Shown here: piece after piece, positions 186 to 21,612 of the stretch
Numbering within the stretch: position 1 is the stretch's first letter
How the letters are laid out: each line of letters opens with the position of its first letter
Source: Enterobacteria phage mEp021
DNA: 54,655 nt
Direction: 5' to 3' (one strand)
Sequence record: MH706966
Notes under the pieces: model-generated
What the model was told of the DNA's origin: nothing
What the model saw: the letters and a program-made list of their open reading frames with translations, nothing else
Databases searched by the model: none
Translations under genes and position numbers: made by a program

Positions 186-1400
186 ATGCTGACGGATACG
201 AAATTACGCGCAATAGCAAACAAGCCATATGACGGCCCGAACGAGATAGCAGATCGCGACGGCTTGTCTGCAAGGGTAAGCCCGAAAGGGAAAATAACTT
301 TCCAGTTCAGGTACAGGTTCAACGGTAAGCCTGTAAGGATGAAGATCGGCGATTACGGCAGCATGACGTTAAAAGATGCACGCTACGCGGTTGCAGAATA
401 CAAAGAGCTATTAGCGAAGGGGAAGAACCCAACTGTTTCAGTAAAGCAAGCGATAAGTTTTGAGCGTGGCAAATTAACGATAAGCGCCATTGTGAGCGAC
501 TATTTATCTCTGCCAAACGTTATTAAGCTGGTTGCATATAATGACGTCAGGAGCGCGCTTAAGCGTCATGTTGTCGATAAATTCGGTGAGTATATTGCCG
601 ATGATGTCAGCACGAAACAATGGATGGATATGTTTGGTGAGATCACTGCGGCGGGCCACGCGGTTACGGCTGGCCTAATACTTAAGCGAATGAAGATTGT
701 TGTGAACAGTGCTATCCGGCGCGGGCTAATGACCAGTACGGCGATAAACAACATCAGGGTTATTGACGTTGGCGAAAATTATGCGGTTGGCGAACGTTAT
801 TTATCATGCGATGAAATAGGCCATTTCTGGCGAACGGTGGATGATTCGCAGATCTACCGTCAGAACAAGATAGCATTAAAGCTATTGTTGCTCACCGGGT
901 GCAGGGTGGGAGAATTGCAGAAAATGCGGAGGGAACACCTCGACCTGGATAACGGTGTGTGGACCGTTCCGGCAGCGGTGGCGAAGACAAGGAGTGAAAT
1001 CAGGCGTGGATTATCTGATCTGTCAATAGAAATGCTCAGGGAGGTATTAGCCTCCCATGAGTATGATTATGTGTTCCCGCCAGTGATTAACGGCGGTAAC
1101 AGGCCAGTAAACGCATCAGTGATAAAAGTAGCTGCAATCTTCGTGCGTAAAAGAATGGGCGGTAAGTCGTGGTCCTGTCACGACCTCCGCCGGACGTGCA
1201 GGACGCACCTGTCAGCCATAGGTGTTCCGGTACATATCGCGGAAAAGATTTTAGGCCACTCACTAAGGGGAATTCTGGCGGTGTACGACAAATATGATTA
1301 TCTTGATGAACAAAAGGATGCGCTAAATAAGTTTGCGGATTATGTATTATCTTTGGCTGACGTCAAACCAATCTCATCAAAGAACCGCATTACATCCTGA
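186..1400 (+). CDS. int: Tyrosine recombinase/integrase, P4-like family
   Basis: 404 aa; N-terminal LTDTKLRA...GLSARVSPKGKITFQFRYRFNGK arm-binding pattern; C-terminal HDLRRT...H and VYDKYDY catalytic region; SD aagagg before the ATG. Confidence 0.9.
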   Translation: MLTDTKLRAIANKPYDGPNEIADRDGLSARVSPKGKITFQFRYRFNGKPVRMKIGDYGSMTLKDARYAVAEYKELLAKGKNPTVSVKQAISFERGKLTISAIVSDYLSLPNVIKLVAYNDVRSALKRHVVDKFGEYIADDVSTKQWMDMFGEITAAGHAVTAGLILKRMKIVVNSAIRRGLMTSTAINNIRVIDVGENYAVGERYLSCDEIGHFWRTVDDSQIYRQNKIALKLLLLTGCRVGELQKMRREHLDLDNGVWTVPAAVAKTRSEIRRGLSDLSIEMLREVLASHEYDYVFPPVINGGNRPVNASVIKVAAIFVRKRMGGKSWSCHDLRRTCRTHLSAIGVPVHIAEKILGHSLRGILAVYDKYDYLDEQKDALNKFADYVLSLADVKPISSKNRITS

Positions 1401-1570
1401 TAGCGATACATGACGCCACGCCCGGTCCCCAACACATCAACCGGGTCCGGGAATGGAGTTCCGTTTTCCTCCCACTTTTTACGCCATGAATAAAACGTTC
1501 CCCTGCTAATTCCGCCCAGCATACGGCAGATGGCAGGGCGACTAAGAAGAATTGTTGCCGTCTTATCCAT
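1340..1570 (-). CDS. AlpA-like excisionase / small DNA-binding regulator
   Basis: 76 aa; LSRPAICRMLGGISRGTFYSWRKK HTH pattern typical of AlpA/Xis partners of P4-like integrases; 3' end overlaps the int 3' end convergently. Confidence 0.6.
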   Translation of the reverse strand: MDKTATILLSRPAICRMLGGISRGTFYSWRKKWEENGTPFPDPVDVLGTGRGVMYRYQDVMRFFDEIGLTSAKDNT

Positions 1571-1573
1571 TAT

Positions 1574-2227
1574 TTACCCCCCCGTGTATTCAACGTGTGC
1601 GATACAGCCATCAATAATTGCTTGTGCCATGTTGCGATAATCGCACGAAAAATCATTGTCATGGTTAAAGTCAATCTCTTTTGCCGCGTCTTCACCAATC
1701 ACCTTAGTAGCCAGCGCAAACGCAATTTGTGACAGTGCTTTTTCTTTTGGATCTATCCATCTGCGATATTTAAACCCATTCCATCTGGCTGTTTCTTCGT
1801 GTTTACCATCCTTTCTAACAAAGATCCCTAACTCATCGCCAGTAAAAATATATTTAGCTACGCAGTACATAGGGGCAAATTCCCCTGGGTAAAATTCTAG
1901 CCATACATTTAACGGCGGTCTTTCTCCTGGCTGCCATTCCTCGACTTTCTGCTTATCGCAATCATGGCGCTCATCTTCGATTAATTCATCAATGATTTCA
2001 CTTTCTTTATTCATGCCGTCATCATCCTTATTCGATAAATCATCGTATTTTTCAAATTTCCAGCCTGAAGCCATAGCCGAATAAGTGCTGCCATTGTCAG
2101 CACGGATACCTAATAAATAGTATGTTCCGAAATTATATTCTGTGCGGCATGTTGCCACCTCAAACGATGGGTAACACTCAGGGTTAGCGCGATGACTAAT
2201 CACGCCAATTGCTTTAAGTTTATTCAT
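1574..2227 (-). CDS. Hypothetical protein (217 aa)
   Basis: Long ORF with SD gaggat upstream; no recognisable motif. Confidence 0.5.
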   Translation of the reverse strand: MNKLKAIGVISHRANPECYPSFEVATCRTEYNFGTYYLLGIRADNGSTYSAMASGWKFEKYDDLSNKDDDGMNKESEIIDELIEDERHDCDKQKVEEWQPGERPPLNVWLEFYPGEFAPMYCVAKYIFTGDELGIFVRKDGKHEETARWNGFKYRRWIDPKEKALSQIAFALATKVIGEDAAKEIDFNHDNDFSCDYRNMAQAIIDGCIAHVEYTGG

Positions 2228-2241
2228 TTGCTTATCCTCAA

Positions 2242-2403
2242 TTACGCCACAGCTACATTGTCAACTTTGATAAAATATTCAGGGTGATTTTCTATTTCGT
2301 GCTGAAAGTGAGCGTGACATAATCGCCAATCACGCGCCTGGTTGTGAAAGTAATAAACGTATTCGCCATCAACCTTATACAAAATGCCTGTAGGTTTAGC
2401 CAT
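2242..2403 (-). CDS. Hypothetical small protein (53 aa)
   Basis: Fills the gap between NinB and the 217-aa ORF; below the 60-aa cut-off of the ORF track; weak SD. Confidence 0.3.
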   Translation of the reverse strand: MAKPTGILYKVDGEYVYYFHNQARDWRLCHAHFQHEIENHPEYFIKVDNVAVA

Positions 2404-2417
2404 GTAATAACTAACCA

Positions 2418-2849
2418 TTATTGCCCCCAGCGTTTTATAAATTCCTCGTTCAACTTAGTGTCACCAGACCATTGAACATTATGTTCAGCGCCGAACGAGT
2501 AGATCAGTTCGATTAGTTCGCTAAATTCTGCTTTACTCATCCGGCTGGTTGACGTACCCAGCACAACAAAACCTGATTTATCCAGGTTAGGGACAACGCC
2601 ATATTTCTTAAGTCCGGCAGTAAATACCGCCTTCCAGTCTTCCGGCGACAGCTTTTTTCCGTACCAATTAACCTGATCGCTAATGTCGGTTAACAGCGCC
2701 CATAAAAGGCTATTTTGACTAAGCGAGCGGGTTTTCTCCTGGATGGTAATTATCAGCGGGCTTTTGCTATCAGACTGGATCTCTCTTATCTGCCTGATAG
2801 CGTTTTCTTTTACGGCGTCGTTTACTATTTCAAATCTAATTTGCCTCAT
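2418..2849 (-). CDS. ninB: NinB-like recombination protein
   Basis: 143 aa; resemblance to the lambda NinB (Orf) family as recalled; sits in a nin-like context next to a methyltransferase. Confidence 0.65.
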   Translation of the reverse strand: MRQIRFEIVNDAVKENAIRQIREIQSDSKSPLIITIQEKTRSLSQNSLLWALLTDISDQVNWYGKKLSPEDWKAVFTAGLKKYGVVPNLDKSGFVVLGTSTSRMSKAEFSELIELIYSFGAEHNVQWSGDTKLNEEFIKRWGQ

Positions 2850-3573
2850 GGTTAGATAACGCCTCGTTTATTCTATTTGATGCAATTTCGAAATATTTTT
2901 CATCCTTTTCTATGCCGATAAAACGTCGGTTAGTATTAATGCAGGCAACGCCTGTAGTTCCGCTGCCCATAGTAAAATCGAGAACCGTTTCCCCTTCGTT
3001 AGTGTATGTCTTAATTAGGTATTCCATCAGTGCGACAGGCTTTTGTGTTGGGTGTACCTTGCCTTTCTGGTTTGCGTTACTTATCTCTATAATGCTTTTA
3101 GGGTGCTTATCCTTATAAGTCCTTAAATCACCATAATTAATTATGCGGTTTGCCTCCCCAGCAGAATATGTTTTACCCGTCCTTTCCTTTTGCGGAGTTT
3201 TTATTGGGTAATATTTGACAGCGCCTTTAGAAAAAACAACAACATCCTCATGCACCCTATAAGGTTGCCATTTGAGGACTTGCATGTTACCGCCTTTCTT
3301 CTTGTCCCATACCCAGCAATATTTAAACATGCTTATGTTGCTTGCAATTAGTGTTGTAGTGAACGGCTGACTTGCAGTCATCACAATGGCGCAATTCGGC
3401 TTAACTATGCGCTTTAATTGCTCCCACATTGGATTAAGAGGAATGACGGAATCCCATTTGCAGGCCGTTGTGCCGTAAGGCGGATCAGCCATTACCATAT
3501 CAACGCTACCGCCTGGGATAGAGTTCATGACCTCCAGACAATCACCCAACAATAATGTAACATCTTTATTCAT
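2836..3573 (-). CDS. DNA methyltransferase, N6-adenine or N4-cytosine type
   Basis: 245 aa; DPPY catalytic motif (MADPPYGT) near the N-terminus and AdoMet motif FTMGSGTTGVA near the C-terminus (motif IV before motif I). Confidence 0.75.
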   Translation of the reverse strand: MNKDVTLLLGDCLEVMNSIPGGSVDMVMADPPYGTTACKWDSVIPLNPMWEQLKRIVKPNCAIVMTASQPFTTTLIASNISMFKYCWVWDKKKGGNMQVLKWQPYRVHEDVVVFSKGAVKYYPIKTPQKERTGKTYSAGEANRIINYGDLRTYKDKHPKSIIEISNANQKGKVHPTQKPVALMEYLIKTYTNEGETVLDFTMGSGTTGVACINTNRRFIGIEKDEKYFEIASNRINEALSNHEAN

Positions 3574-4629: not shown

Positions 4630-6045
4630 TTAAAAAGATGCGTTATTCTGGTTGTTTCGTTGGTTAAATCTGCCTGTGCGGTGATTCATAGACTGAATAC
4701 ACGCAGCAGCCGCGCGTGCCTGGTCGCATGGTAAAATGTTGCCGTTATCATCAAACCGCTGGTAAACAGTGCCAGATTTACCATGACGGTTTTTCGATAC
4801 AATGATTTCCATATATTCGCGGGCTACAGACTGCTCATCGTAATATCCATCGCGGTAAACCATGATGATCCTGTCAGCATCTTGTTCAAGGTTCCCGGAA
4901 TCGCGCAGATCTGAATTGTTAGGACGCTTGTTCGGTCGCTCCTCAACGCGGCGTGACAACTGCGCCAGCGCTAACACTGGAACGCGCAATTCTTTTGCCA
5001 TCATCTTCAACGACCATGACAATTGCCCAACAGCGAGATCATGACGTTCAGCCTTAGCCAGCTTCATCAACCCGATGTAGTCAATCATTACCATACCCAG
5101 GTTAGGATGTTCCTGTTTCATCCGTTCCGTGGTGGCGCGTATTTCCTCAACCGTTAACTGCGACGCGTCAACGATCCACACATCAAGATTAGCAAGTGCG
5201 CTCATACCCTTGCCGACATGCGCCCACCCCTCATCATCAAGTTTTACCGGATTACGCAGGCAGTCTGTTGATAAATTACCAGCGCCAGCTATAGCGCGTT
5301 CAGTCATCTGATCGAGTGACATTTCAAGCGTGAAGAACAAAACGCCAACCCGCTGATCTTTACTGCCAGGGTAAGGGCGCTCAGCGGCAGCGCGGGCAAT
5401 TGTCAGCGCCAACGCAGATTTACCAGACCCAGGGCGTCCAGCTAAAAGCACCAAATCAGTAGCGTTAATGCCTCCCAACATCTCATCGAGTGGATCTATC
5501 CCTGTTTTGATGTTGTCAGAATTAACACCGCATTCCATGCGCTTGCTTAAAACGTCCGTATATTCCTGTACCGCATCACGCAACAGAACAGGAATGATCT
5601 TATCTTTCGTTACCTTTAATTTTGAATACCGGGAATCAAAATCTTTCATCGTCTCTTTGACGACCTCAAGCGTCCCCGTCTCCAGTTTGTAGCGCATATC
5701 GTCGATGAGTTCCAACATCTGCCGCCGCTGGTGCTCTTCACGTAGTAGCTGTGCGTATCCCTTCAGGTTGGCAGCAGACGGGCACGATCTCGCCGTTTGC
5801 ATTAGCGGTACAAAGTTTTCGTTGCCAATCTCATCGCCAACCAATAACGCGTCAATAAGATTCCTGTTTCTGGCTTGCGCCCTGATAATTTCAAACGCAC
5901 GTTTATACAGCGGAATCGTGAACACTTCAGGATCAAGAGTGGCGAGAACATCTTGCGCGTTAGGAGTAAGGCCGCCCAACAGCAGCCCACCGATAACTGA
6001 CGCCTCACGTTCCTGCCGTAGTGAGTTTATTTGCTCAGTTACCAT
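4630..6045 (-). CDS. dnaB: Replicative DNA helicase, DnaB family
   Basis: 471 aa; Walker A GRPGSGKSALALTIA; DnaB-like N-terminal domain and overall pattern. Confidence 0.85.
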   Translation of the reverse strand: MVTEQINSLRQEREASVIGGLLLGGLTPNAQDVLATLDPEVFTIPLYKRAFEIIRAQARNRNLIDALLVGDEIGNENFVPLMQTARSCPSAANLKGYAQLLREEHQRRQMLELIDDMRYKLETGTLEVVKETMKDFDSRYSKLKVTKDKIIPVLLRDAVQEYTDVLSKRMECGVNSDNIKTGIDPLDEMLGGINATDLVLLAGRPGSGKSALALTIARAAAERPYPGSKDQRVGVLFFTLEMSLDQMTERAIAGAGNLSTDCLRNPVKLDDEGWAHVGKGMSALANLDVWIVDASQLTVEEIRATTERMKQEHPNLGMVMIDYIGLMKLAKAERHDLAVGQLSWSLKMMAKELRVPVLALAQLSRRVEERPNKRPNNSDLRDSGNLEQDADRIIMVYRDGYYDEQSVAREYMEIIVSKNRHGKSGTVYQRFDDNGNILPCDQARAAAACIQSMNHRTGRFNQRNNQNNASF

Positions 6046-6079: not shown

Positions 6080-6586
6080 TCAGGGTAAAGAAATACCGTG
6101 ATTGCTATGAAAGTTATACATTCTTTCAGCTTCTTTTCTTGCTTTTACGGCATCATCAAATGAGTCACCGTAATAAACGTACATTGTTTTCTTTTTCCCA
6201 TCAGACCCCCTTATACCTATTTGCGCCCGCCATTTATGGGTTTTCTTGTTCCACGTAACGCCAACGCATCCGCTAGTATTACTTGATGGCATTGTTTTGT
6301 TTCTGTTATTCTCCTTCCTTGTCACTATCCTTAAGTTTTCGATTCTATCGTCACCAGGTACATGATTTATGTGATCTATTTCCATTCCATCAGGAATAGG
6401 GCCGTTAAACATTTCCCAGATAATGCGGTGACGCCATGTGCAACAAATACCATTAACGCGTATAGTCCAATATCCGCGATAATGTTTACATCCAGCCACG
6501 CTACCTGCTTTTATTTTGTTATTTGCACGGTTACAAGACCAATATAGAACGCCGTCGCTATATGTAAATAAATCATCCCACATCAT
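6080..6586 (-). CDS. HNH homing endonuclease with AP2-like domain
   Basis: EIDHINHVPGDDRIENLRIVTRKENNRNK HNH motif; start taken at the internal ATGATG (6586) that overlaps the stop of the upstream gene; paralog of 45958-46524. Confidence 0.65.
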   Translation of the reverse strand: MMWDDLFTYSDGVLYWSCNRANNKIKAGSVAGCKHYRGYWTIRVNGICCTWRHRIIWEMFNGPIPDGMEIDHINHVPGDDRIENLRIVTRKENNRNKTMPSSNTSGCVGVTWNKKTHKWRAQIGIRGSDGKKKTMYVYYGDSFDDAVKARKEAERMYNFHSNHGISLP

Positions 6587-7703
6587 GACACCCAACCATT
6601 TCAGGCCTATATACAAAGCGACCAATTTCGCCATAATCAGGGCTGTAAATGATAACCGCCGCGCAACGTTGCGATCTCCAGCCTCCATTAGTTGAATAAG
6701 CGTCTTTTCCCGCTAACGTGCCGTGGTGTTCAACTATGCCTATAGATGATTCTGTTACTGATTTATGGTGCAAATGTCCGACATGGACGTAAACATATTT
6801 CGACTTGCCAAAATCCTCACGCCAGTCAGCTACGCAAGCAGACAATAAATTTTCAGGCTTTTTGATAGTGTGCCCGTGGTGGTAAGCAAGGAATGTTTTT
6901 CCGTACTGTGTGTGGTGGACGATGGCAGGGGACACATCAACCGTCACGCGCGGTTCATCTTCGTAAAAAGCCGCCAGCGCCGCACGTAGCCAGATCATTC
7001 CTGACTGGTCGTGATTGCCGGATAACACCTGGATTTCAACATCCTTATGATTTAATAACATCTTCCCTACCGCCCGCCGGACAGACCGGATCGCTACATA
7101 AACAAGTTTTGCGTAGCGACTATCTTGATCAAGAATGTGCCCGCTTGTTGGTGTCACCGGGACCATACCGTCAGAATGAAGTAGATCGCCACCGAGGAGC
7201 AGTACTGCTTTTTCAGACATAGGAGCAGCGCCAACCGCGTAGTCAAAGAAGTCATTCAACACGCGCTCAGCGATCCCAGTATCGTAGCTCTCACCGCATT
7301 CAGCTTTATGAGCAAGTGCCCCGATATGCAGGTCAAACACCGGATAAAGAGCCAGGCTTTTTTGAAAATCAATTTCCGGCACTGGCACTGCCTCCGCGCG
7401 TGGTATTTCTTCCGTGAATGCGTCGCGGGCGGCTTCCATTAGCCTTTCCATTTCATCGCGATCACGGGCTGTTTTAATCCAGCGCATGACCGTATTACCA
7501 GCCTTATCGACAAGAACAGATTCACCAGTAACGCCAAAACCCGGTGCGCGGCGCGTTGATAATAAACCGCGTTTCGCCAGCTTTGCGCCAAGCCGCTCGA
7601 CGTTGCGTTTTGACATGCCATATTTTTCGGCGATCTGTTTATACGTTAAACCGTTGTTATATTCAGCGATCAATTGCTCATCGCTTATCTTTCTTTGCGA
7701 CAT
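6573..7703 (-). CDS. HTH domain fused to calcineurin-like metallophosphoesterase (Mre11/SbcD or lambda-PPase-like)
   Basis: 376 aa; N-terminal LTYKQIAEKYGMSKRNVERL HTH; phosphoesterase motifs LLGGDLLHSDG, LSGNHDQ, HHGH, HVGHLHH. Confidence 0.6.
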   Translation of the reverse strand: MSQRKISDEQLIAEYNNGLTYKQIAEKYGMSKRNVERLGAKLAKRGLLSTRRAPGFGVTGESVLVDKAGNTVMRWIKTARDRDEMERLMEAARDAFTEEIPRAEAVPVPEIDFQKSLALYPVFDLHIGALAHKAECGESYDTGIAERVLNDFFDYAVGAAPMSEKAVLLLGGDLLHSDGMVPVTPTSGHILDQDSRYAKLVYVAIRSVRRAVGKMLLNHKDVEIQVLSGNHDQSGMIWLRAALAAFYEDEPRVTVDVSPAIVHHTQYGKTFLAYHHGHTIKKPENLLSACVADWREDFGKSKYVYVHVGHLHHKSVTESSIGIVEHHGTLAGKDAYSTNGGWRSQRCAAVIIYSPDYGEIGRFVYRPEMVGCHDVG

Positions 7704-7736: not shown

Positions 7737-9224
7737 TCATTGGCAGAAAACAATCTCTTTAAATGCTTTTTCTACCATGTCGAATACTTCCGGCCTGTAA
7801 TAGAAAAACTCATTGCTTCCATCAAATTTCACAGGAAAATTGATTTTATAATTACTAAAAGCCTTATGCATCGTGTTTTCTAGTTTATGTATACTTTCGG
7901 TTGGCCCTTCTAACGTTTTCACGACACACAAATCAGGGATTCTAACACCTGCTTTATGTGCGCTTTTTAATATCCGATTTCTTCGCTCGTTCTCCTTAAC
8001 ACTTACGCCGATTTTCATTTGTGTAGGTAATTCCAGATCATCAACCATGATGTAAAGTTTGCCATAATCATAACGAAAGAAACCGTATTTAGCGCATTTT
8101 TGGCAACCCCTACCGCGCTTAAGTTCTCTAGGTCTAACCGACCACTTATGATTACAAACCTTACAGCGGCATGATACTTTTTTATTTACGTTCGTTATTT
8201 CTCCCAGCACTTCAACATCAGGATTAACCTTAGCAATAGCTAAAACATGTTCTTCGTGCGTTATAATCTTCCCAGCACATTTTGGGCAACCCTTCCCGCG
8301 TTTAAGGTTGCTAGGAGTAACCGACCACTTATGATTACAAACCTTACAGCGGCATGATACTTTTTTATCTACGTTCGTTATTTCTCCCAGCACTTCAACA
8401 TCAGGATTAACCTTAGCAATAGCTAAAACATGTTCTTCGTGCGTTATAATCTTCCCAGCACATTTTGGGCAACCCTTACCGCGCTTAAGGTGGTTAGGTC
8501 TAACTGACCATTCATGATCACAAACCTTGCAGCGGCATAATACTTTTTTGTCGCCACCTGTAATTTCACCCAGCACTTCAACATCAGGATTAACCTTCGC
8601 AATGGCAGCAATTTGTTTATAATGTGATAGTCTTAGTTTTTGTGCAATTTTCACACATTTACATTTCGGGCAACCGCTCCCGTGTTTAAGGGCGTCAGGC
8701 GTAGCCGACCATACACGATCACAAATCTTGCAGCGGCATAATACTTTTGTTCTGCTATTAACAATTTTCCCCAGCACTTCAACATCAGGATTAATTCTTG
8801 AGATGGCGGCGATCTGTTCTTCGTGTGATAATCTTTTTGGCCCTTGCTTTAACATTGCGCATTTCGGGCAACCATTCCCGCGTTTAAGGTTGCTAGGAGT
8901 AACCGACCACTCATGATCACAAACCTTGCAGCGGCATAATACTTTTGTGCTGTTATTTATTATTTCCCCCAACACTTCAACATCAGGATTAATTTTAGCA
9001 ATAGCCGCAATTTGTTCTTCGTGGGATAGCCTTGCGTTCCCAGCGCATTTTGGGCAACCTTTACCGTGTTTAAGGTTGCTAGGAGTAACCGACCATTCAT
9101 GATCACAAACCTTGCAGCGGCATAATACTTTTTCCCGGCTTCCAGTAATTTCTCCCATCACTTCAACATCAGGATTAACTTTCGCAATAGCTGCAACCTG
9201 TTCTTCGTGTGTTAGCTTGCACAT
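7737..9224 (-). CDS. Protein with six tandem Zn-ribbon modules and a C-terminal GIY-YIG-like (T5orf172-type) domain
   Basis: 495 aa; six ~55-aa repeats HEEQVAAIAKVNPDVEVLGEI...C.C..C.H.W...P..L..G.GCPKC; C-terminal GKLYIMVDD...KIGVS...RRNRIL pattern; repeats 5 and 6 are near-identical at DNA level. Confidence 0.55.
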   Translation of the reverse strand: MCKLTHEEQVAAIAKVNPDVEVMGEITGSREKVLCRCKVCDHEWSVTPSNLKHGKGCPKCAGNARLSHEEQIAAIAKINPDVEVLGEIINNSTKVLCRCKVCDHEWSVTPSNLKRGNGCPKCAMLKQGPKRLSHEEQIAAISRINPDVEVLGKIVNSRTKVLCRCKICDRVWSATPDALKHGSGCPKCKCVKIAQKLRLSHYKQIAAIAKVNPDVEVLGEITGGDKKVLCRCKVCDHEWSVRPNHLKRGKGCPKCAGKIITHEEHVLAIAKVNPDVEVLGEITNVDKKVSCRCKVCNHKWSVTPSNLKRGKGCPKCAGKIITHEEHVLAIAKVNPDVEVLGEITNVNKKVSCRCKVCNHKWSVRPRELKRGRGCQKCAKYGFFRYDYGKLYIMVDDLELPTQMKIGVSVKENERRNRILKSAHKAGVRIPDLCVVKTLEGPTESIHKLENTMHKAFSNYKINFPVKFDGSNEFFYYRPEVFDMVEKAFKEIVFCQ

Positions 9225-9365
9225 CGTTTCAACTCCTTAAAACGCCTCAGACACTCTACAACGCAAAAACACACCGCGTAATCCACTTGTAATGGTGCAG
9301 TGTCTTTTTTGCGCCAGAATCGCAATCAGGTGGCTAATTTTTTGATTTACAGACTGGTATGAAGG

Positions 9366-12261: not shown

Positions 12262-12317
12262 AATTAACGAAGATGATTTTTTATTAAGTATCATCAAGGA
12301 TATAAGGAGATCAGATC

Positions 12318-12608: not shown

Positions 12609-12638
12609 TACAAAATGTAAATAATCGGAGGTGACATT

Positions 12639-12761
12639 ATGGTTATCGAGGCGCTCAAATTCAAACTTGCGGTAGCGGAAATGCTTCATGATGCCGAAAT
12701 GTGGAGCGCCGCGAATAAAGCCTTATACGTAGTGTTAACAGCGAAGGAGATCAAAGAGTGA
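12639..12761 (+). CDS. Hypothetical small protein (40 aa)
   Basis: Strong SD ggaggtga; stop overlaps the erf start. Confidence 0.35.
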   Translation: MVIEALKFKLAVAEMLHDAEMWSAANKALYVVLTAKEIKE

Positions 12762-13838: not shown

Positions 13839-14363
13839 ATGAGTAATGCCGAACCATTGAAAATATGTTGTACTTGCGGGGCACTATTGCCCCTTTCTTG
13901 TTTTCATAACGATAAGGGCAAGAAAGACGGCAAATCATGTAGATGTAAAGAGTGCGCCAAAAAAGCCACTAGAGAATGGAGTGAAGCGAATAAAGAAAGA
14001 AAAAAGAAAAATGATAGCGAATACGCAAAAACAGATAAAGCCAAAAAGAAAAGGGAAGAATACAGAAAATCGCAAAGAGGTAAAGAGATCGCGGCTGAAT
14101 CAAGAAAAAAATGGAATGAGAAAAACCCTAAAAAATACCACGCCCAAGTGATGGCACATAACGCTATCCGCGACGGCAAATTAATTAAACAACCTTGCGA
14201 AGTATGCGGCAGAGATGACCGCGTACACGCGCACCATTGCGATTATGATAAGCCGCTCGATGTTATGTGGCTTTGCCCGATATGCCATCGAGAGTGGCAC
14301 AACGAACACGGTGAAGGAGCTAATGCACACGACGAGGTATTAAGTGGTGAGCGAATATCTTAA
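13839..14363 (+). CDS. Zinc-binding protein with HNH-like C-terminal motif and lysine-rich centre
   Basis: 174 aa; CCTCG...C.C.EC then HAHHCDYDKPLDVMWLCPICHREWH. Confidence 0.5.
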   Translation: MSNAEPLKICCTCGALLPLSCFHNDKGKKDGKSCRCKECAKKATREWSEANKERKKKNDSEYAKTDKAKKKREEYRKSQRGKEIAAESRKKWNEKNPKKYHAQVMAHNAIRDGKLIKQPCEVCGRDDRVHAHHCDYDKPLDVMWLCPICHREWHNEHGEGANAHDEVLSGERIS

Positions 14364-14628
14364 AGCACCGCCACCGCCACCGCGAACAAAAGAACAAGTA
14401 TTAAAAGAAGCCCGTGATCATATCGATCATGGGCTTTTTTTATGCGGAACGGCGGCGGATCGAATGGCGAAAAGATTTAGTGACCTGTACGCAAAACAAA
14501 TATGGTTCGACAACTGGCAGGCAAGTTTTTACCCACTGCAAAGAAAACCGGATATGCATTGGCCTGAATATGTCGATCCACGTATGCGCAAATATCGCGG
14601 GCGTATGGGCCAGGTTATTAACGATTAA
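14344..14628 (+). CDS. Hypothetical protein (94 aa)
   Basis: ORF in the rightward early operon. Confidence 0.4.
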   Translation: MVSEYLKAPPPPPRTKEQVLKEARDHIDHGLFLCGTAADRMAKRFSDLYAKQIWFDNWQASFYPLQRKPDMHWPEYVDPRMRKYRGRMGQVIND

Positions 14629-14642
14629 TGAGGTATTAAATC

Positions 14643-14867
14643 ATGATCGAAGATAAAGAAGTTGACGTAGAAATTCCTGACAGCGCTGATGAGCTTATCA
14701 CTTTCGGCGGCGGCCTGTATGAGTTCGATACATCGGCTGGGTGGGTTGATAAGTGGCCTCAGCCTACTCGCCAGGAATTAATTAACCGCAAATCATTCGG
14801 CGAAGATGCAGAACGCCTTGCTAATAACAAGTGGCTTAACAAGTTCATTGCGGAGGGTGATAAATGA
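14643..14867 (+). CDS. Hypothetical acidic protein (74 aa)
   Basis: ORF with SD; D/E-rich. Confidence 0.45.
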   Translation: MIEDKEVDVEIPDSADELITFGGGLYEFDTSAGWVDKWPQPTRQELINRKSFGEDAERLANNKWLNKFIAEGDK

Positions 14868-14977
14868 ACCTTGCAAAAATTGCCGCATTGCTTGCGGCTT
14901 TGTCTATCGCTGTGCTGTATCTCAGCGTATCGCTTTATATAACGGTAGCGATCATTAAACTCATTGCTAACATGTGA
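14864..14977 (+). CDS. Small membrane peptide (37 aa)
   Basis: MNLAKIAALLAALSIAVLYLSVSLYITVAIIKLIANM; ATGA overlap with the upstream stop; SD ggaggg. Confidence 0.45.
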   Translation: MNLAKIAALLAALSIAVLYLSVSLYITVAIIKLIANM

Positions 14978-14985
14978 GGTTAATC

Positions 14986-15105
14986 ATGAAAGTCGGTAAG
15001 GATATTGTGACGGTCGCGTTTTGCATTATTTGCTTCCTATTTGTGGTTGTGTTTTGTGGCGGATTTGCAGCGCTGGTTAGCTTTATTTTCAGGGGATTGT
15101 TGTGA
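14986..15105 (+). CDS. Small membrane peptide (39 aa)
   Basis: MKVGKDIVTVAFCIICFLFVVVFCGGFAALVSFIFRGLL; SD tgaggt; overlaps the next gene start. Confidence 0.45.
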   Translation: MKVGKDIVTVAFCIICFLFVVVFCGGFAALVSFIFRGLL

Positions 15106-15377
15106 TGAAAACATGGGATGCAAAGACTGGTGATCTTGTTGTATTGCCTGAATATCGTGATGACCCTGGCCTGGTTGTACTGAATAAGATGTATAACGAT
15201 CTAGATCGCCCGCTAGTGGTTAAATACCTGGACGGAACAATCATAGAACCGCGCTACTTTGATGATATTGAACTGAAGGCCCGCAACGTTCGCGTTAAGC
15301 CGTTCCGGGCTTATGTTGAGGACCACTGGCGGAAATTGTTCGCCGGACTGAATGGGATGTACGGCGTATGGCTATAA
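15102..15377 (+). CDS. Hypothetical protein (91 aa)
   Basis: ORF in a tightly packed operon. Confidence 0.45.
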   Translation: MMKTWDAKTGDLVVLPEYRDDPGLVVLNKMYNDLDRPLVVKYLDGTIIEPRYFDDIELKARNVRVKPFRAYVEDHWRKLFAGLNGMYGVWL

Positions 15378-15559
15378 AGGAAGTAAAGGTCAAAGACCTG
15401 AAAGGCGGTGAGCGATTAAAGGCGTGGTGGGGTCGCGAGTTTACAGCCGCTGCCTTCATGATCATGCAGGGCGGGGAGGTCGTTATATACGATGAAGACC
15501 TGAAGGAAGTCGGCAGGTGGCATCTTGAGCAATATATCGAGGTGTTAGATGAAAATTAA
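15368..15559 (+). CDS. Hypothetical protein (63 aa)
   Basis: ORF in a tightly packed operon. Confidence 0.4.
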   Translation: MAIKEVKVKDLKGGERLKAWWGREFTAAAFMIMQGGEVVIYDEDLKEVGRWHLEQYIEVLDEN

Positions 15560-15881
15560 ATTCCATAAAGGTTATGATTCGGTCACTAACAAGTTATCGC
15601 TATTTATTGAGTTCGAGCGCCGGATCGTGGTTGTTCCTTATTCTCGGCGCTTTAATGATGCGGCAGGGCGGCGGCAATTCGCGTTAGACATGTTGTTACG
15701 TGGCTGCGGCCTTATGCGCCCGCTATCTGATTTGAAACGGATGATGCCGGGATCGTTCGGTCAGATTGATGAAATAGAAATAAGCCCGGAAGAACTGAAG
15801 CGGGAGCGTGATTTATTCCTTTCAAGCGAAGGAAACCCGTTTAATTCAGAAACAGAAATGAAATGGCATCACCCACTATAA
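15549..15881 (+). CDS. Hypothetical protein (110 aa)
   Basis: ORF in a tightly packed operon. Confidence 0.45.
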   Translation: MKIKFHKGYDSVTNKLSLFIEFERRIVVVPYSRRFNDAAGRRQFALDMLLRGCGLMRPLSDLKRMMPGSFGQIDEIEISPEELKRERDLFLSSEGNPFNSETEMKWHHPL

Positions 15882-15894
15882 AAGGATAAATATC

Positions 15895-16515
15895 ATGAAC
15901 GACATTAAAACAGCTTATTCACTAGGCAGCGATGGCATGTTAATCACTCGCTACACTGAAGACGCAAGTTTTCATGAAGTGGAAACGAAGGATTATCACG
16001 AAGTATTAAAAGATATGGAAGCTGGCGCGTATGACGCAGATTTGAATCTGGCTTTACAGATTGTTGATATTATGATGGACGCGTCGATCCGCGATTATGT
16101 GTCTTTAAACGCTGAAGAAAAAACGGCTGTGGCTCGTTATGTCTTCTGCCTAACTTTCGTGAAACGAATGGAAGAGGAATATGGGCGCGTGCCAGTGCCG
16201 GAAGAAATTGACCCGCTGGCGTTCGGAAGCGCTGTTATTTTCCCGTTAGATGAAAATCATACTGGTAGCGTTGCGCTGCATTCTATGCGCGGCGTAATGA
16301 AATGCATCTTTGAGGCTAAAGCGCTACAGAAGTGCATTGATGAAGGGCATGACGAAGAAGACGTAAAAGCGATCATGCCGTTGTTTTATGGCGAAATGGT
16401 TGGGAACAACATGCGCGCAAATGATTTAGGTGTGCAGGCTGCCATAACTGTACTTAACGAAGCGCGGAAAATGTCGCAGCCAATGCCGGAACCTGAAAAA
16501 CGTGTACTGCATTAA
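15895..16515 (+). CDS. Hypothetical acidic protein (206 aa)
   Basis: Long ORF with SD; markedly D/E-rich. Confidence 0.5.
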   Translation: MNDIKTAYSLGSDGMLITRYTEDASFHEVETKDYHEVLKDMEAGAYDADLNLALQIVDIMMDASIRDYVSLNAEEKTAVARYVFCLTFVKRMEEEYGRVPVPEEIDPLAFGSAVIFPLDENHTGSVALHSMRGVMKCIFEAKALQKCIDEGHDEEDVKAIMPLFYGEMVGNNMRANDLGVQAAITVLNEARKMSQPMPEPEKRVLH

Positions 16516-16614
16516 CATCGTGATTGCGATCACATAAATATACATTTTGTGTTGTGATCGCATATCCGTTTTGTAAACTGAAATCAAAAGGTTTACGGCA
16601 CGGAGGAAAACAAG

Positions 16615-16833
16615 ATGGCAAGCGAATTAATGCTTTATTGTGTTGAAGGTGGCGTGGGACATGATGCCTACGTCGCCGGGAAAAGCTATCCAGCAGATGA
16701 AGTGCTTTCTAATATGCACTTCCGGGAAAATGAAAACCAGGTGTCTGTGTGGAAGCGATGCGTTGATGGCATTGAGGTAGTTAGCCTCGAAAGATATTTG
16801 GGTAAATTTGACTACGCATTGATCGAGGCTTAA
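16615..16833 (+). CDS. Hypothetical protein (72 aa)
   Basis: SD cggagg upstream. Confidence 0.45.
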   Translation: MASELMLYCVEGGVGHDAYVAGKSYPADEVLSNMHFRENENQVSVWKRCVDGIEVVSLERYLGKFDYALIEA

Positions 16834-16931
16834 CTATGGACGAAACATTGCTATTCATGTGCATTTGCTGGGGTTTTATTGCCTTATGCCTGTTTATCAG
16901 GTGGTTTATTGAATACCATATGAGGTGATAT

Positions 16932-17126
16932 ATGGAACAGAAAACTGATTATAGAATACCTGACAACCTGAAGTTAGTTGGCATTGGTTTTGGTTGTCGT
17001 TTTGTATCTGACGCAAACGGGGCGATTTATTTAGTGCGCATCATTGATGGCGTTCAACATATAAGAAGGCTAGGACTTTACATCAAAGCATTTAGAAGAG
17101 GTTATTTGAAAACTCATGAAATTTAA
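16932..17126 (+). CDS. Hypothetical protein (64 aa)
   Basis: ORF with SD gaggtga. Confidence 0.4.
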   Translation: MEQKTDYRIPDNLKLVGIGFGCRFVSDANGAIYLVRIIDGVQHIRRLGLYIKAFRRGYLKTHEI

Positions 17127-17319
17127 ACAGTATAAAGAATGGAAGATTCCAGAAGAAGCGACAAAGGCAGCGCCCGGAATTTTTTCGGGCGTTTATTTTT
17201 ATATGGGCGGTAAATGGTATTTCGGCAGCAGGCCGGATCACTATTATCAAGAATTATGCAAATCTCACACATGGGACATTAATGAACGCGTGCAAGGCGG
17301 TGTAATAGACGAGGTTTAA
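17116..17319 (+). CDS. Hypothetical protein (67 aa)
   Basis: ORF overlapping its neighbours by a few nt. Confidence 0.4.
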   Translation: MKFKQYKEWKIPEEATKAAPGIFSGVYFYMGGKWYFGSRPDHYYQELCKSHTWDINERVQGGVIDEV

Positions 17320-17320
17320 A

Positions 17321-17557
17321 ATGATTAATGGTTTTTTAAGCTGGTTAAGAGTGTGGTTTTTTGCCACGCTTTTCGTTTTTTTGGCGTTCAGCGGTGTCAT
17401 TGTCATATTTACGCTGGCGATGATGTTCATTACATGGTCAGTACCTGAATTTAACAATCTTGGAAGTATTTTTGCTGTCGCCCGCGCCATGTTTGCTTGT
17501 AGCGCATTTGTTGGTTTTTGTTGGAGTGTTTCGCCTGATTGGGATGATGAATGGTGA
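17321..17557 (+). CDS. Small membrane protein (78 aa, two predicted TM helices)
   Basis: Hydrophobic segments FFATLFVFLAFSGVIVIFTLAMMFI and FACSAFVGFCW. Confidence 0.45.
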   Translation: MINGFLSWLRVWFFATLFVFLAFSGVIVIFTLAMMFITWSVPEFNNLGSIFAVARAMFACSAFVGFCWSVSPDWDDEW

Positions 17558-17561
17558 TCCT

Positions 17562-17795
17562 ATGGCCTTGTTCAATATGTCAGAACTGCAATTCAACGCC
17601 GTAAAAGCTGCCGCCCGCGCTGCACTTTCTGCTTGCAAAGCGGAGGTAGAGAAAAACGGCTACAGCGATAAAGCCACGCGGCTGATATTAGAAAAGCATT
17701 ATCGCAAGGTCGCCCCACTAATCAGCATTGAGCGCTTTGTGTGGTTGGTGGGGTATTTAAACAACCGTTGGGGGACGGAACAAGATTATTTCTAA
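17562..17795 (+). CDS. Hypothetical protein (77 aa)
   Basis: Internal ATG start chosen to avoid overlap with the upstream membrane-protein ORF. Confidence 0.4.
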   Translation: MALFNMSELQFNAVKAAARAALSACKAEVEKNGYSDKATRLILEKHYRKVAPLISIERFVWLVGYLNNRWGTEQDYF

Positions 17796-17804
17796 GGGGG
17801 CGTA

Positions 17805-18344
17805 ATGAAAAATGATTTTGGAGGCAGCCACACTCCTAAGGAAATTAAAGATCTATGGCAGACGCCTAAACCAGTTTTCAGAGGAATGGACCGCGAATTT
17901 GAATTTGTCGCTGACGTGGCGGCAAACAAGGAAAATGCGCTAGTTCCTCGGTATATAACCGAAGAAATGGACACGTTGCATTATCCGTGGGGAGCTGTGG
18001 CAATGCCTGGTGAGTATGTCTGGCTTAATCCGCCATATTCTAAACCGGGGCCATTCGTTGAGAAGGCGGCATTAGAACATCAACGAAATCACATTGGCTG
18101 TGTAATGCTGTTGCCCGCTGACATTTCTGTTAGCTGGTTTATGAACGGCGTGGATACGGCAAACGAATGCCGATTAATCACGCGCGGGCGGCTGGCGTTT
18201 ATCAATGCTGCGACTGGTAAGCCAGTAAGCGGAAACAATAAAGGGAGCTTGTTTTTGATCTGGCATCCACGGTGCAGACATGAATGTATTTTTACACACA
18301 TAACACGTAAAGAGCTATACGCAAGAGGTGCAGATAATGACTAG
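17805..18344 (+). CDS. dam: Phage-type DNA N6-adenine methyltransferase (Dam-like)
   Basis: 179 aa; WQTPKPVF...DVAANKENALVPRYIT...WLNPPYS pattern of the phage Dam family; SD aaggggg. Confidence 0.75.
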   Translation: MKNDFGGSHTPKEIKDLWQTPKPVFRGMDREFEFVADVAANKENALVPRYITEEMDTLHYPWGAVAMPGEYVWLNPPYSKPGPFVEKAALEHQRNHIGCVMLLPADISVSWFMNGVDTANECRLITRGRLAFINAATGKPVSGNNKGSLFLIWHPRCRHECIFTHITRKELYARGADND

Positions 18345-18834
18345 TGCAGCAGATTTACTACGAATCGCAGCGGAAACAATTGAGCAAAGAGGTAAACAAA
18401 ACGGCTACGACAGAAAAGAGGAAAAATCAGCGCCAAAAATAGCCACTATATACAACGCTAAGAAGGGCGCAAATTTAACCCCACTTGATGTATGGGATCT
18501 GATGATTTGTCTTAAGGAGGCGCGTTTAGAGGCTATTTTGGTTAATGGCAGCGATCCCACTGACACTTTGGTTGACCTAATCAGCTACAGCGCACTAAAA
18601 GCTGAGCAAATATTGAATGATCTGGATGAAGAGTTAAAGAAAAATCAGTTCACTGCCGCCAATATTAATGATGGAATAATAAATGACGCAGCAATAACAA
18701 GCTGTAAGGGATTGCCGCCTTCAATGCTTAAACCTCAGTGTGGCTGTATTTCAAATCGGCTTGATTTGAGTTTTGACAGATCTGAAGCTATTCGCGACAA
18801 GAGGTATGACCCAAATGAAAAAGGTGACAATTGA
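18337..18834 (+). CDS. Hypothetical protein (about 165 aa)
   Basis: ORF with SD aagagg; no motif recognised. Confidence 0.45.
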   Translation: MTSAADLLRIAAETIEQRGKQNGYDRKEEKSAPKIATIYNAKKGANLTPLDVWDLMICLKEARLEAILVNGSDPTDTLVDLISYSALKAEQILNDLDEELKKNQFTAANINDGIINDAAITSCKGLPPSMLKPQCGCISNRLDLSFDRSEAIRDKRYDPNEKGDN

Positions 18835-19318
18835 CAGGTTATTGGCCTGCGTTTATGTCGCCGTTTTCGTGATCATCAACCTAATTGTTAACCATTGCGG
18901 CCCGTGGGTGATTCCTATCACTACGGTAGCCGCTGTGTGTGTCAATATGATGATCCGCGACTTCCTGTTATATGACGGCGGTATCAAGTGGTCGGCGACA
19001 ACATGCGCCGCCGCTGGCGCAATCACTGTGCTGATAAATTACGACGCCGGAATGGTAGCGATCGCGTCATTTGTTGCGGTTGTTTCCGGTGCACTTATTT
19101 CTGGCGGCGTTTACCGGGTTTTACCTGGTGACTTTGATTCAAAACGATGGCCTGCAAATATAGCGTCAGCAATAGGCGATGCGTTGATTTTCCCTACGCT
19201 ATCGTTTATGGCATTCATGCCGGAAATATCAGCAATGCAATTCATATCCAAAATGGCGGCGGTAACGGTGATCACTATCATCATGCGCCGCTATTTTACG
19301 TTTGAGGGTAGAAAATGA
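18806..19318 (+). CDS. Multi-pass membrane protein (possibly VUT/YhhQ-like transporter; start uncertain)
   Basis: Four or five hydrophobic segments; loose resemblance to YhhQ-type proteins from memory only. Confidence 0.4.
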   Translation: MTQMKKVTIDRLLACVYVAVFVIINLIVNHCGPWVIPITTVAAVCVNMMIRDFLLYDGGIKWSATTCAAAGAITVLINYDAGMVAIASFVAVVSGALISGGVYRVLPGDFDSKRWPANIASAIGDALIFPTLSFMAFMPEISAMQFISKMAAVTVITIIMRRYFTFEGRK

Positions 19319-20073
19319 GCAGGGGTAAACATTGGTTTAATAATTGGCTTAGAAATTGGGTCGTTTGGTCGTTGTACGACGGCAGCGGGTACGCCGTCAA
19401 AGATTGGGCGGAAGCAGGATATAAGTGCTATTGCTTCAACTATGACGGCGCAAATCACGGCGATTATGAAGGCGTTAAAATCATTCATCCAAATATTGAA
19501 TACGTTAACGTATGGATTGACAGTCACTTCCTGGTGATGTTCTCGCCTGAACTGTCAGTTTACCCAGATCCTGATATTATCCTGGGCTTCCCGCCGTGCG
19601 ACGATCTCGCCGTGTCTGGCGCTCGCTGGTTCGCTGATAAACGGAAAAAAGATCCTGACTTCCAGGTGAAGGCGGCGAATAGCGCAAAACTGGTAGAAAA
19701 ACTGGCGGATATGCACAACGTGCCGTGGATGGTGGAAAATCCGGTGGGAGCACTGTCAACGCTATGGCGCAAACCTGATTTTATTTTCAACCCTTGCGCT
19801 TACGGTGGCTACCTGCCGGAAGACGACAAACATCCTGCTTTCCCTGATGTTTACCCTGCGCGCGACGCGTATACAAAGAAAACTTGCATATGGTGCGGCA
19901 ACGGATTCAAACAGCCGCTTTTTAGACCTGTAGATCTTAACTCTGGCGATAACCCTGGGTGGGCGAAAACAGGAGGCAGGACGAAACGAACAAAGATGAT
20001 ACGCTCACTAACTCCGCGCGGCTTTGCCCGTGCTGTATTCATGGCTAACCATGACCGCGTTTTACCGGACTGA
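19315..20073 (+). CDS. Small DNA C5-cytosine methyltransferase-like protein
   Basis: 252 aa; LYDGSGY (motif I-like), GFPPCDDLAVSG (PC motif, with PCD rather than PCQ), MVENPVG (ENV motif). Confidence 0.45.
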   Translation: MSRGKHWFNNWLRNWVVWSLYDGSGYAVKDWAEAGYKCYCFNYDGANHGDYEGVKIIHPNIEYVNVWIDSHFLVMFSPELSVYPDPDIILGFPPCDDLAVSGARWFADKRKKDPDFQVKAANSAKLVEKLADMHNVPWMVENPVGALSTLWRKPDFIFNPCAYGGYLPEDDKHPAFPDVYPARDAYTKKTCIWCGNGFKQPLFRPVDLNSGDNPGWAKTGGRTKRTKMIRSLTPRGFARAVFMANHDRVLPD

Positions 20074-20170
20074 AATTTACAAAATGGCGTCATTGCGTGA
20101 TGTGGATCACATAATGGCGCTATTCACCTTGTTCTGATGTATCCATTTTGTATACTTCAAACAAGCAAAA

Positions 20171-20183
20171 TGCTCTTTAAAAA
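20171..20183 (+). promoter_or_regulatory. Second boxA-like element (tgctctttaaaaa)
   Basis: 12 of 13 match to the boxA consensus tgctctttaacaa; intergenic, upstream of the nin-like genes and Q; no clear boxB hairpin. Confidence 0.3.
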
Positions 20184-20232
20184 TCCGGCAGCGCTGAAAT
20201 GCGTAGAAATCACCTGAAAAGGAGAGAGCATT

Positions 20233-20409
20233 ATGCCTTTTAATAATTACCAATGGCATGACGACTATGAACGAGAAAGCGTCATGCGTGCAATGTGCAA
20301 TGTATGCAGCACGAAGAAAGGAGACTGCAACGAGTGCAACGAATGTTTAGATCATTGGCTAAGGGCCGGACACGCCGAAAGGCTGAACGAAACAGAAAAT
20401 CAAAAATAA
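20233..20409 (+). CDS. Small Cys-rich protein (58 aa), possibly NinF-like
   Basis: Strong SD aaaaggagagag; CNVCSTKKGDCNECNEC; same size and position as lambda NinF; below the ORF-track cut-off. Confidence 0.45.
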   Translation: MPFNNYQWHDDYERESVMRAMCNVCSTKKGDCNECNECLDHWLRAGHAERLNETENQK

Positions 20410-20423
20410 TCGGGGTGATTTTT

Positions 20424-21029
20424 ATGCAGAACCCTAAAAAACCAATACGACGCCGTTGCAAATGCTGCGGCGTTTTTTTTGAGCCTAAATATCACAATCA
20501 AACGTGGTGCAGTGATGAATGTCTGGAAGAACTGAAGTTTGACCAGCTATGCCGCGACCGAGAAAAGGCTATGAAGGCTATGGAACGGAAGAAACGCCGC
20601 GACAGCCAGCGTGAGGAACGCAACCGGAAACGTAAACAGTTAAATCCGCGCAGCTACTGGATTAAACAGGCGCAAAACGTGTTTAACGCATATATTCGCG
20701 AACGTGACGCAGGACAGCCGTGTATATCTTGCGGGACTTATTATTACGAACAATGCGGCGCTGATGCTGGACACTGGCGCACAGTAGCGGCAGCCGGACA
20801 CCTTCGCTTTAACGAGGATAACGTAAACCTACAATGCCGACATTGCAATCAGGTATTAGACGGCAATGTAGAGTTATACAGAATAAATTTAATAAAAAAA
20901 ATAGGATTAGAAAGGGTGGAGGCATTAGAAAATAATAACGAGACTCACAAATGGACGATAGAAGAATGTAAGGAAATCATAAAAGTCTATCAGGCTAAAT
21001 TGGACGCCTTAAGGAGAAAGGCGGCATGA
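20424..21029 (+). CDS. ninG: NinG/Rap-family recombination protein
   Basis: RSYWIKQAQNVFNAYIRERD...PCISCGT...AGHWRT...LRFNEDNVNLQCRHCNQ...WTIEECKEI closely parallels lambda NinG as recalled; start at the internal ATG with SD cggggtga. Confidence 0.85.
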   Translation: MQNPKKPIRRRCKCCGVFFEPKYHNQTWCSDECLEELKFDQLCRDREKAMKAMERKKRRDSQREERNRKRKQLNPRSYWIKQAQNVFNAYIRERDAGQPCISCGTYYYEQCGADAGHWRTVAAAGHLRFNEDNVNLQCRHCNQVLDGNVELYRINLIKKIGLERVEALENNNETHKWTIEECKEIIKVYQAKLDALRRKAA

Positions 21030-21433
21030 ATGAATATTCTTTTAGCCTGCCTTACCCGCCATCGAACAATCGCTATTACCGACATTCTCGCGGTTTTCAC
21101 TATATTAGCAAAGTGGGGAAGGAATACAGGGAACAAGTAAGAGACATCATCGAGCTATTAAATTTAAACATCAACCTATCTTGCCGACTGGCAATAACTA
21201 TTCATGCCGCGCCGCCTGATAACCGGATCAGAGATCTGGATAATATCCCAAAATGCCTTTTTGATAGCCTTACTTACGCCGGATTCTGGACCGACGACGG
21301 ACAAATCGATTCTATAAAAATTGTTCGCTGCCGGAAGGTGAAAGGCGGGCGATTGTTTATTAAGGTGCGCGAGCGCGGCGACCTGTTACCGGATATTGGC
21401 GAATACGAAACTAATATATGGGGTGAGAAATGA
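21026..21433 (+). CDS. rusA: RusA-family Holliday junction resolvase
   Basis: 135 aa; LPYPPSNNRYYR N-terminal signature and conserved acidic residues. Confidence 0.8.
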   Translation: MNEYSFSLPYPPSNNRYYRHSRGFHYISKVGKEYREQVRDIIELLNLNINLSCRLAITIHAAPPDNRIRDLDNIPKCLFDSLTYAGFWTDDGQIDSIKIVRCRKVKGGRLFIKVRERGDLLPDIGEYETNIWGEK

Positions 21434-21612
21434 AAAACGAAATTAAAGATCTGCAAATAGATATTCAGCGCGACGAGCTTGATTTAGCTACAGTCAGGCA
21501 AATCCAGGCTTTCCACATGAGAGAATTGCTTGCGCTGAAAGAGCTTGAAAGAAAGTTGGTCCAGTCAATATCTGATCGCAAAAGACTGGTTGCGCGTTAC
21601 GGGGGTAAATAA
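21430..21612 (+). CDS. Hypothetical small protein (60 aa)
   Basis: ORF between rusA and Q. Confidence 0.35.
   Translation: MKNEIKDLQIDIQRDELDLATVRQIQAFHMRELLALKELERKLVQSISDRKRLVARYGGK

Follow-up and report, generated by a model that had tools for sequence, protein, structure and literature searches.

Enterobacteria phage mEp021 (sequence record MH706966; the whole stretch of 54,655 nucleotides is referred to here as the window) has an early region composed of lambda and P22 gene families in which one block, comprising the recombination, N, repressor, initiator, helicase and ninB genes, is inverted. The gene for the late antiterminator Q belongs to the N/recombination operon, where lambda and P22 carry it on the cro/replication operon, and no Cro homologue is recognizable. 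Taken as a whole, together with the regulatory model developed below, this explanation is given a probability of about 0.85. The arrangement is already known: the phage is published, and experimental work has been done on its repressor, its N-like protein and its three nut sites. mEp021 serves as archetype of the mEpimmI group, temperate coliphages that are Nus-dependent and 'non-lambdoid', and 48 genomes of this type share one common conserved architecture (Negrete-Mendez et al. 2025, PMC11893012). The main text of that paper contains no word starting with 'inver' and does not describe the order as an inverted lambda/P22 early block; nor does it take up what the first leftward gene is or where the late promoter lies. 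A literature search for other phages described with a flipped arrangement returned nothing relevant.

The canonical order in P22 and lambda is int, xis, erf, N, repressor, cro, initiator, helicase, ninB, ninG, Q. The mEp021 order is this series with the block erf...N-cI-O-helicase-ninB inverted between xis and ninG, and therefore NinB lies on one arm and NinG on the other. The leftward arm (minus strand) contains an O-like replication initiator (9601-10608; phrog_428, phrog_8540 and phrog_391; HTH_36, E = 1e-14), a conserved 376-residue protein (6573-7703; phrog_704 'DNA repair exonuclease', E = 2e-144), a DnaB-type replicative helicase (4630-6045; DnaB_C, E = 9e-76), NinB (2418-2849; PF05772, E = 1.5e-46) and, at the distal end, an Xis-like small helix-turn-helix (HTH) protein (1340-1570; HTH_23, E = 6e-7; phrog_4745 DNA-binding protein, E = 5e-11), to which an excisionase role is assigned by position only. 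The plus strand carries the cI-type repressor Rep021 (gp15; 11167-11814; HTH_3 and Peptidase_S24), the N-like antiterminator Gp17 (12318-12608; phrog_271, E = 1e-10), Erf recombinase (12758-13399; PF04404, E = 3e-42), SSB (13399-13809; PF00436, E = 7e-23), NinG (20424-21029; PF05766, E = 8e-65), RusA (21026-21433; PF05866, E = 8e-15) and Q (21612-22334; PF03589, E = 1e-29; phrog_127, E = 3e-78). Local tblastn comparison with P22 and lambda yields 57% identity between the helicase and P22 gp12, 53% between the two Erf proteins, 51% for NinB against both the lambda and P22 proteins, 52% and 49% for NinG against lambda and P22, respectively, and 40% between the repressor and P22 c2. Q is homologous to the lambda Q/P22 gp23 family over its full length (34.9% identity to lambda Q, E = 8e-33, and 34% to P22 gp23, covering 99% of the protein). 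The sign of the GC skew flips at approximately 11 kb, which fits the change of coding strand.

Much of this layout had been proposed in a first-pass annotation made from the sequence alone. Profile searches confirm the identities and strands of the initiator, helicase and NinB genes, which it had placed on a leftward arm directed toward int and xis. The assignment of NinG, RusA and Q to the strand and side of cI and N, unlike lambda, holds as well, and NinB stays on the replication arm as had been stated. The description of the module order as permuted relative to lambda captures something real, although it is better put as the lambda/P22 order with one block inverted. Q had been included in an interval ending at 21612; its identity and strand are correct, but the gene begins at that last base and so lies just outside the interval.

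The order is conserved among relatives. Synteny was scored by tblastn in 43 IMG/VR contigs recovered with the N-like protein, in the related coliphage mEp515 and in a prophage of strain WCHEC025970. Wherever a locus extends, the genes follow as int(+), xis(-), NinB(-), helicase(-), exonuclease-like(-), initiator(-), winged-helix protein(-), cI(+), N(+), Erf(+), SSB(+), methyltransferase(+), NinG(+), RusA(+) and Q(+), with the same order and orientation in all 43 scoreable IMG/VR loci, mEp515 and the prophage. The phrog_704 protein is found in all loci that reach that far. In 35 complete Escherichia coli genomes, window positions 9300-13800 are matched in one joined place, on one strand and collinear across the switch. 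The second junction, 20074-20424, is collinear in 45 loci.

These observations decide against two other explanations of the order. Misassembly or inversion at the immunity region had been named at the outset as the result that would overturn the proposal; a segment assembled in the wrong orientation at 20-21.6 kb would be an error of the same kind. No evidence supporting such an error was found, the 48 published genomes share the architecture (PMC11893012), and misassembly is excluded because independent assemblies, namely 43 viral contigs, mEp515 and a prophage within a closed chromosome, as well as the collinear E. coli genomes and loci just described, agree on the order. The arrangement is formally equivalent to a one-block inversion of the canonical order, and the block could on that ground be imagined as a programmed invertible segment, alternating between a lambda-like and the present orientation. 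The G segment of Mu flips between orientations in this manner. A switch of this kind is discounted with practical certainty for mEp021, since none of the 45 related loci shows the opposite orientation and no significant inverted repeats or scars occur at the two breakpoints. Moreover, a scan of 41 distinct proteins encoded at window positions 186-24538, which left out a few small open reading frames, including 14344-14628 and 16615-17319, detected no invertase family. Flipping would also part the promoters from their nut sites.

The layout of the switch is lambda-like once flipped: the repressor gene points away from the replication operon and ends at a terminator of its own, beyond which an early promoter serves N. 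Rep021, which combines HTH and S24 domains as is typical of the mEpimmI group, confers immunity, as shown experimentally (PMC11893012). A conserved intrinsic terminator lies directly after cI (11820-11837, plus strand; found by scanning, folding energy -13.8 kcal/mol, z = -3.3). The predicted rightward early promoter, TTGACT-17-TATATT at 11938-11966, is the best plus-strand match between 9 and 25 kb in a promoter scan with a threshold of 9 of 12 consensus positions. Across 44 loci both hexamers hardly vary: the -10 element is invariant, and a single -35 position falls to approximately 90%. Since cI is closed off by a terminator and the conserved promoter comes only after that, the rightward early unit does not include cI. 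The earlier claim that this unit begins with cI and N is thus right for N, Erf, SSB and the genes up to Q, and wrong for cI. In lambda, similarly, cI and N lie on one strand yet in separate transcription units. The leftward early promoter is predicted at 11048-11077 on the minus strand (CTGACA-18-AATGAT with a TG element) from the consensus scan and from conservation; the intergenic region holding it and nutL is highly conserved in 43 loci. No repressor operators were identifiable with confidence from repeats in the two promoter regions. The start codon of cI lacks a clear Shine-Dalgarno sequence (11132-11169), and a weak promoter-like pair, TTGCAT-17-TAGGGT, is so placed that transcripts from it would begin at the ATG or close to it. 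This hints at a leaderless cI mRNA, comparable to the lambda PRM transcript, on which the cI message is leaderless. Between the rightward early promoter and the N-like gene, a terminator-like hairpin specific to the minus strand (11997-12017) was noted, along with promoter-like sites on that strand at 12192-12221 and 12315-12343; a small antisense RNA, complementary to the N leader and nutR1, could terminate at this hairpin. The stretch 12010-12215 is missing in approximately 30% of related loci.

A cI-type repressor and a divergent promoter region are present, and no Cro-family gene was found; homologues of CII and CIII were likewise not found. The first leftward gene (10615-10860, minus strand), which occupies Cro's position and had been called Cro-like, encodes an 81-residue winged-helix protein. 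Profile searches returned no Cro-family match for it. Instead, it resembles the DNA-binding N-terminus of O-type initiators, including that of the neighbouring 9601-10608 product. In 40 related loci scored, the gene occurs as two allele types, only 30-36% identical to one another, and each is strictly paired with one initiator type: either the HTH_36/O-like type or a type named Lin1244/Lin1753 by PGAP. The repressor is meanwhile 93.5-98.6% identical over the same loci. Because the gene co-varies with the initiator and not with cI, it behaves as a member of the replication module rather than the immunity module. Two loci (L013 and L042) do without it, the initiator being the first leftward gene there. 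The Cro-like label is accordingly rejected on family matches and co-variation. An open reading frame at 11877-12086 was also considered as Cro or another regulator and rejected: it has no family match, starts 5' of the promoter and is partly missing in approximately 30% of loci. The initiator gene itself contains four iterons of approximately 22 bp (10227-10314) adjoining an AT-rich stretch, and the origin is placed within the gene. Iterons inside the initiator gene recall lambda O, and the C-terminus of the protein is 36% identical to P22 gp18.

The wiring of Q depends on the N-like protein and its sites. The predicted 12318-12608 product is identical to AXN54136.1, and its translation has arginines at R17, R19, R20, R21 and R24, as compared with the conserved Gp17 arginines published at 17, 19, 20 and 24 (PMC11893012). 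Gp17 antiterminates at nutL, nutR1 and nutR2, as stated in PMC11893012 in citing Valencia-Toxqui et al. (2023, Arch Virol 168:92). The published positions are upstream of gp15 for nutL, upstream of gp17 for nutR1 and downstream of gp32 for nutR2 (PMC11893012). All three are legible in the sequence at these relative positions, so that mEp021 carries the Gp17/nut system of the mEpimmI group. Of these, nutL, at 10965-11001 on the minus strand, consists of boxA GCTCTTTAA followed by a boxB hairpin, most columns being invariant in 43 loci; nutR1, at 12225-12262 on the plus strand, consists of a boxA-like GCTCATTAACAA followed by a hairpin and is conserved. The third, nutR2 (20172-20205, plus strand), occupies the non-coding gap between a cytosine methyltransferase gene and NinG and is near-invariant in 45 loci. 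Its boxA and spacer share 17 identical nucleotides with nutL. A terminator-like hairpin (20454-20472) lies inside the start of NinG, approximately 250 nt 3' of nutR2. Q is located approximately 9.7 kb from the rightward early promoter, with several terminator-like hairpins between and nutR2 close upstream. From its position in the N operon behind nutR2, Q is expected to be made far along the rightward arm and in an N-dependent manner. The N to Q to late-gene cascade is retained; what has changed is which early operon carries Q, together with the extra nut site. To speak of a different logic for timing late gene expression, as had been done initially, is consequently too strong.

The likely target of Q lies at a distance. 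A candidate late promoter, TTGTAG-17-TAAAAT, followed by seven bases, AACAAT and a strong hairpin with a U-run (24295-24313; z = -3.2), spans 24239-24313 on the plus strand, approximately 1.9 kb beyond the Q gene. In lambda and P22 late promoters the geometry is alike: TTGACT-17-TAAATT, six bases, AACGAT and then a terminator. This segment of mEp021 is likely to be the late promoter, Q-utilization site and terminator. A stretch of approximately 110 nt before the holin gene is the sole conserved block between the Q and holin genes. The distance between these two genes is 2.0 kb in mEp021 and 3.1-5.4 kb in 21 related loci. Holin and endolysin genes (24338-25030, plus strand; phrog_20 holin, E = 2e-19; annotated as lysozyme in mEp515 and the prophage) are the first of the late genes. 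A site right behind Q (22348-22375; terminator-like hairpins at 22451-22471 and 22593-22612) was also weighed as the late promoter and rejected, as the region is coding and not conserved among relatives. Another candidate, at 24179-24206, was set aside because its conservation is only moderate. The interval 22334-24230 is a variable cassette of small genes (compared in relatives L049-L093). It includes a 76-residue open reading frame (22334-22564) whose translation is coupled to that of Q and whose N-terminal paralogue lies at 15549-15881.

The following course of events is proposed. (i) Upon infection, the leftward promoter at approximately 11048-11077 would transcribe nutL, the initiator gene with its internal origin, the helicase and NinB genes, and lastly the Xis-like gene. 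(ii) The rightward promoter at 11938-11966 would transcribe nutR1 and the genes for Gp17, Erf and SSB, followed by approximately 6 kb of accessory genes. (iii) Gp17 and host Nus factors carry RNA polymerase past terminators on both arms, a step that is published (PMC11893012). (iv) Situated directly before NinG-RusA-Q, nutR2 may act as a second loading point for polymerase. (v) Q would be made some 9.7 kb into this transcript, and only if N works. (vi) Finally, Q is presumed to act at the late promoter just 5' of the holin gene.

Several points weigh against this reading. The promoters, as well as the late promoter and its Q-utilization site, are sequence predictions; the candidate late promoter matches the consensus at only 8 of 12 positions; and the boxB hairpins, being short, are not distinguishable from what shuffled sequence gives. 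Whether a real inversion event or an independent assembly of modules produced the order is a separate matter: the breakpoints bear no scars that would document inversion as history. In addition, int and xis lie on opposite strands here but not in lambda, a difference for which one inversion alone fails to account. The same two features favour a mosaic origin, in which 'lambda with one block flipped' is description and not history. Consistent with such an origin, the structural genes and the whole proteome put the mEpimmI group outside lambdoid clades (PMC11893012), and many genes have no lambdoid counterpart. Set against this, at least six homologous genes hold their relative order and polarity, within the block and outside it alike, which one event explains more simply than several. 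Mosaic assembly is a serious contender, if the less probable of the two.

The motif pair upstream of nutR2 could also mark a separate promoter for NinG-RusA-Q, which would change the wiring. The non-coding junction at 20074-20171 contains an inverted pair of TACAAAATGG and is conserved in 45 loci, most strongly at both motifs. An 18-mer of the junction recurs without mismatch, in the opposite orientation, directly beside the -35 element of the rightward early promoter. If one mismatch is allowed, the genome contains 21 copies of the 10-mer TACAAAATGG, where 5.8 +/- 2.3 are expected. Copies include 11927-11936, 20078-20087, 20143-20152 (minus strand), 37649-37684, 42049-42058 (minus strand) and 52947-52989, among others. 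Several lie directly 5' of promoter-like hexamers in intergenic positions of the late half of the genome, sometimes as inverted pairs; the copies beside the rightward early promoter and within the nutR2 junction show family-wide conservation, and some others merely overlap start codons. The motif may be a promoter-associated or regulator-binding element. If a third early promoter within this junction of approximately 100 bp mainly drove NinG-RusA-Q, nutR2 would be that promoter's own nut site, much as lambda nutL lies close to its promoter. Weak hexamers, TTGTTC-16-TATACT and CGTCAT-16-CATAAT, are indeed present 10-50 nt upstream of nutR2, although neither pair reaches the scan threshold. The shared 18-mer is oppositely oriented at the junction, TACAAAATGG recurs in several unrelated intergenic regions as well as over some start codons, and in the published model nutR2 belongs to the rightward transcript. 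A third promoter is accordingly considered unlikely, and expression of Q from the N operon is preferred. A more far-reaching version, also thought improbable, holds that the circuit has been rewired in three ways: the early block is inverted; Q depends on the N operon through a booster nut site or on its own promoter at 20074-20171; and Cro is absent altogether, the first gene of the replication operon being dispensable in some members. Were this true, the lysis-lysogeny decision and early shut-down would differ from those of lambda; a possible means is the over-represented TACAAAATGG, which occurs in the promoter regions next to cI as well as in the junction.

The window is the mEp021 genome as published. 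Megablast comparison of positions 1-22000 with phage genomes identified six related coliphages, of which mEp515 is the closest, with 98.1% identity and the same first base. A 1450-bp GenBank fragment of mEp021 (JQ072023) matches the window at 100%, and the 495-residue product of 7737-9224 is exactly AXN54131.1 of Enterobacteria phage mEp021. The integration site of mEp021 is ydaM (PMC11893012). At the left end of the record the prophage/host junction (att, dgcM/ydaM; 1-19) was placed by alignment to the WCHEC025970 prophage junction, window bases 1-24 aligning with the left junction beside a dgcM pseudogene. Since its first bases align there, the record is linearized at the attachment site. 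The ydaM (dgcM) integration and type I integrase of the mEpimmI group are thereby found in the window. The tyrosine integrase (186-1400, plus strand; PF00589 and PF13356, each E = 2.6e-21), with its P4-type arm-binding domain, reads inward from the att end. It is convergent with the Xis-like gene, the 3' ends sharing 61 bp (1340-1400), and antiterminated leftward early transcription would therefore enter int antisense. The replication arm is broken by two endonuclease genes, 6080-6688 and 7737-9224, both of which look like mobile insertions. An HNH endonuclease gene of this arm is not in the WCHEC025970 prophage; the 495-residue zinc-ribbon-repeat protein has a T5orf172 domain, and its cluster at 90% has three members only. 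Between SSB and the junction lie approximately 6 kb of accessory early genes on the plus strand (13839-20073), comprising an endonuclease, two methyltransferases, many small open reading frames and several terminator-like hairpins. The early region contains three DNA methyltransferase genes in all: an N6/N4 type (2836-3573), a Dam-like type (17805-18344) and a cytosine type (19315-20073). An Rfam scan of the whole window gave no match at gathering thresholds.

As a natural variant of the lambda circuit, mEp021 is useful: the same parts, namely cI, N/nut, Q, an initiator with an internal origin and nin genes, function when the early block is flipped, Q belongs to the N operon and there are three nut sites. 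The 2025 paper is extended in two respects: the gene in Cro's position behaves as part of the replication module, and the probable late promoter is separated from the Q gene by kilobases and closely precedes the holin gene. In terms of genes, the phage has the lambdoid traits of an N-like protein with nut sites and a Q homologue, the function of Gp17 and its Nus dependence being published. The lambda module order, which permits viable hybrids and serves as a lambdoid criterion, is absent, as the early block is inverted; the authors class the mEpimmI group as non-lambdoid (PMC11893012).

P22 is the best gene-for-gene comparator. It has homologous Erf, gp12 helicase, NinB, NinG, c2 repressor and Q/gp23 proteins, as well as an N/nut system, and shares with mEp021 an origin inside the initiator gene; the late promoter predicted for mEp021, like that of P22, precedes a short terminated transcript. 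It differs in that its erf...24-c2-cro-18-12-ninB block is oppositely oriented relative to int/xis and to ninG-23, and its gene 23 lies on the cro/replication operon, directly before the target promoter. P22 also has Cro, C1 and C3 homologues, which are not recognizable in mEp021, and two nut sites as opposed to three. Lambda shares N/nut and Q antitermination dependent on Nus factors, together with the related NinB (51%), NinG (52%) and Q (35%) proteins. The orientation of the block again differs, with Q of mEp021 on the N operon and a third nut site added. Further differences from lambda are that the Q gene of mEp021 lies 2-5 kb from its likely target promoter (the range in the group), Erf and SSB replace Red, a DnaB-type helicase takes the place of P, int and xis are convergent, and Cro, CII and CIII homologues were not found. 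The Stenotrophomonas phages vB_SmeS_BUCT708 and vB_SmeS_BUCT709 encode an initiator 42% identical to that of mEp021 over 95% of its length, likewise followed by a replicative helicase. In these phages, by contrast, the module occupies the canonical place, reading rightward from a Cro/CI switch and away from int.

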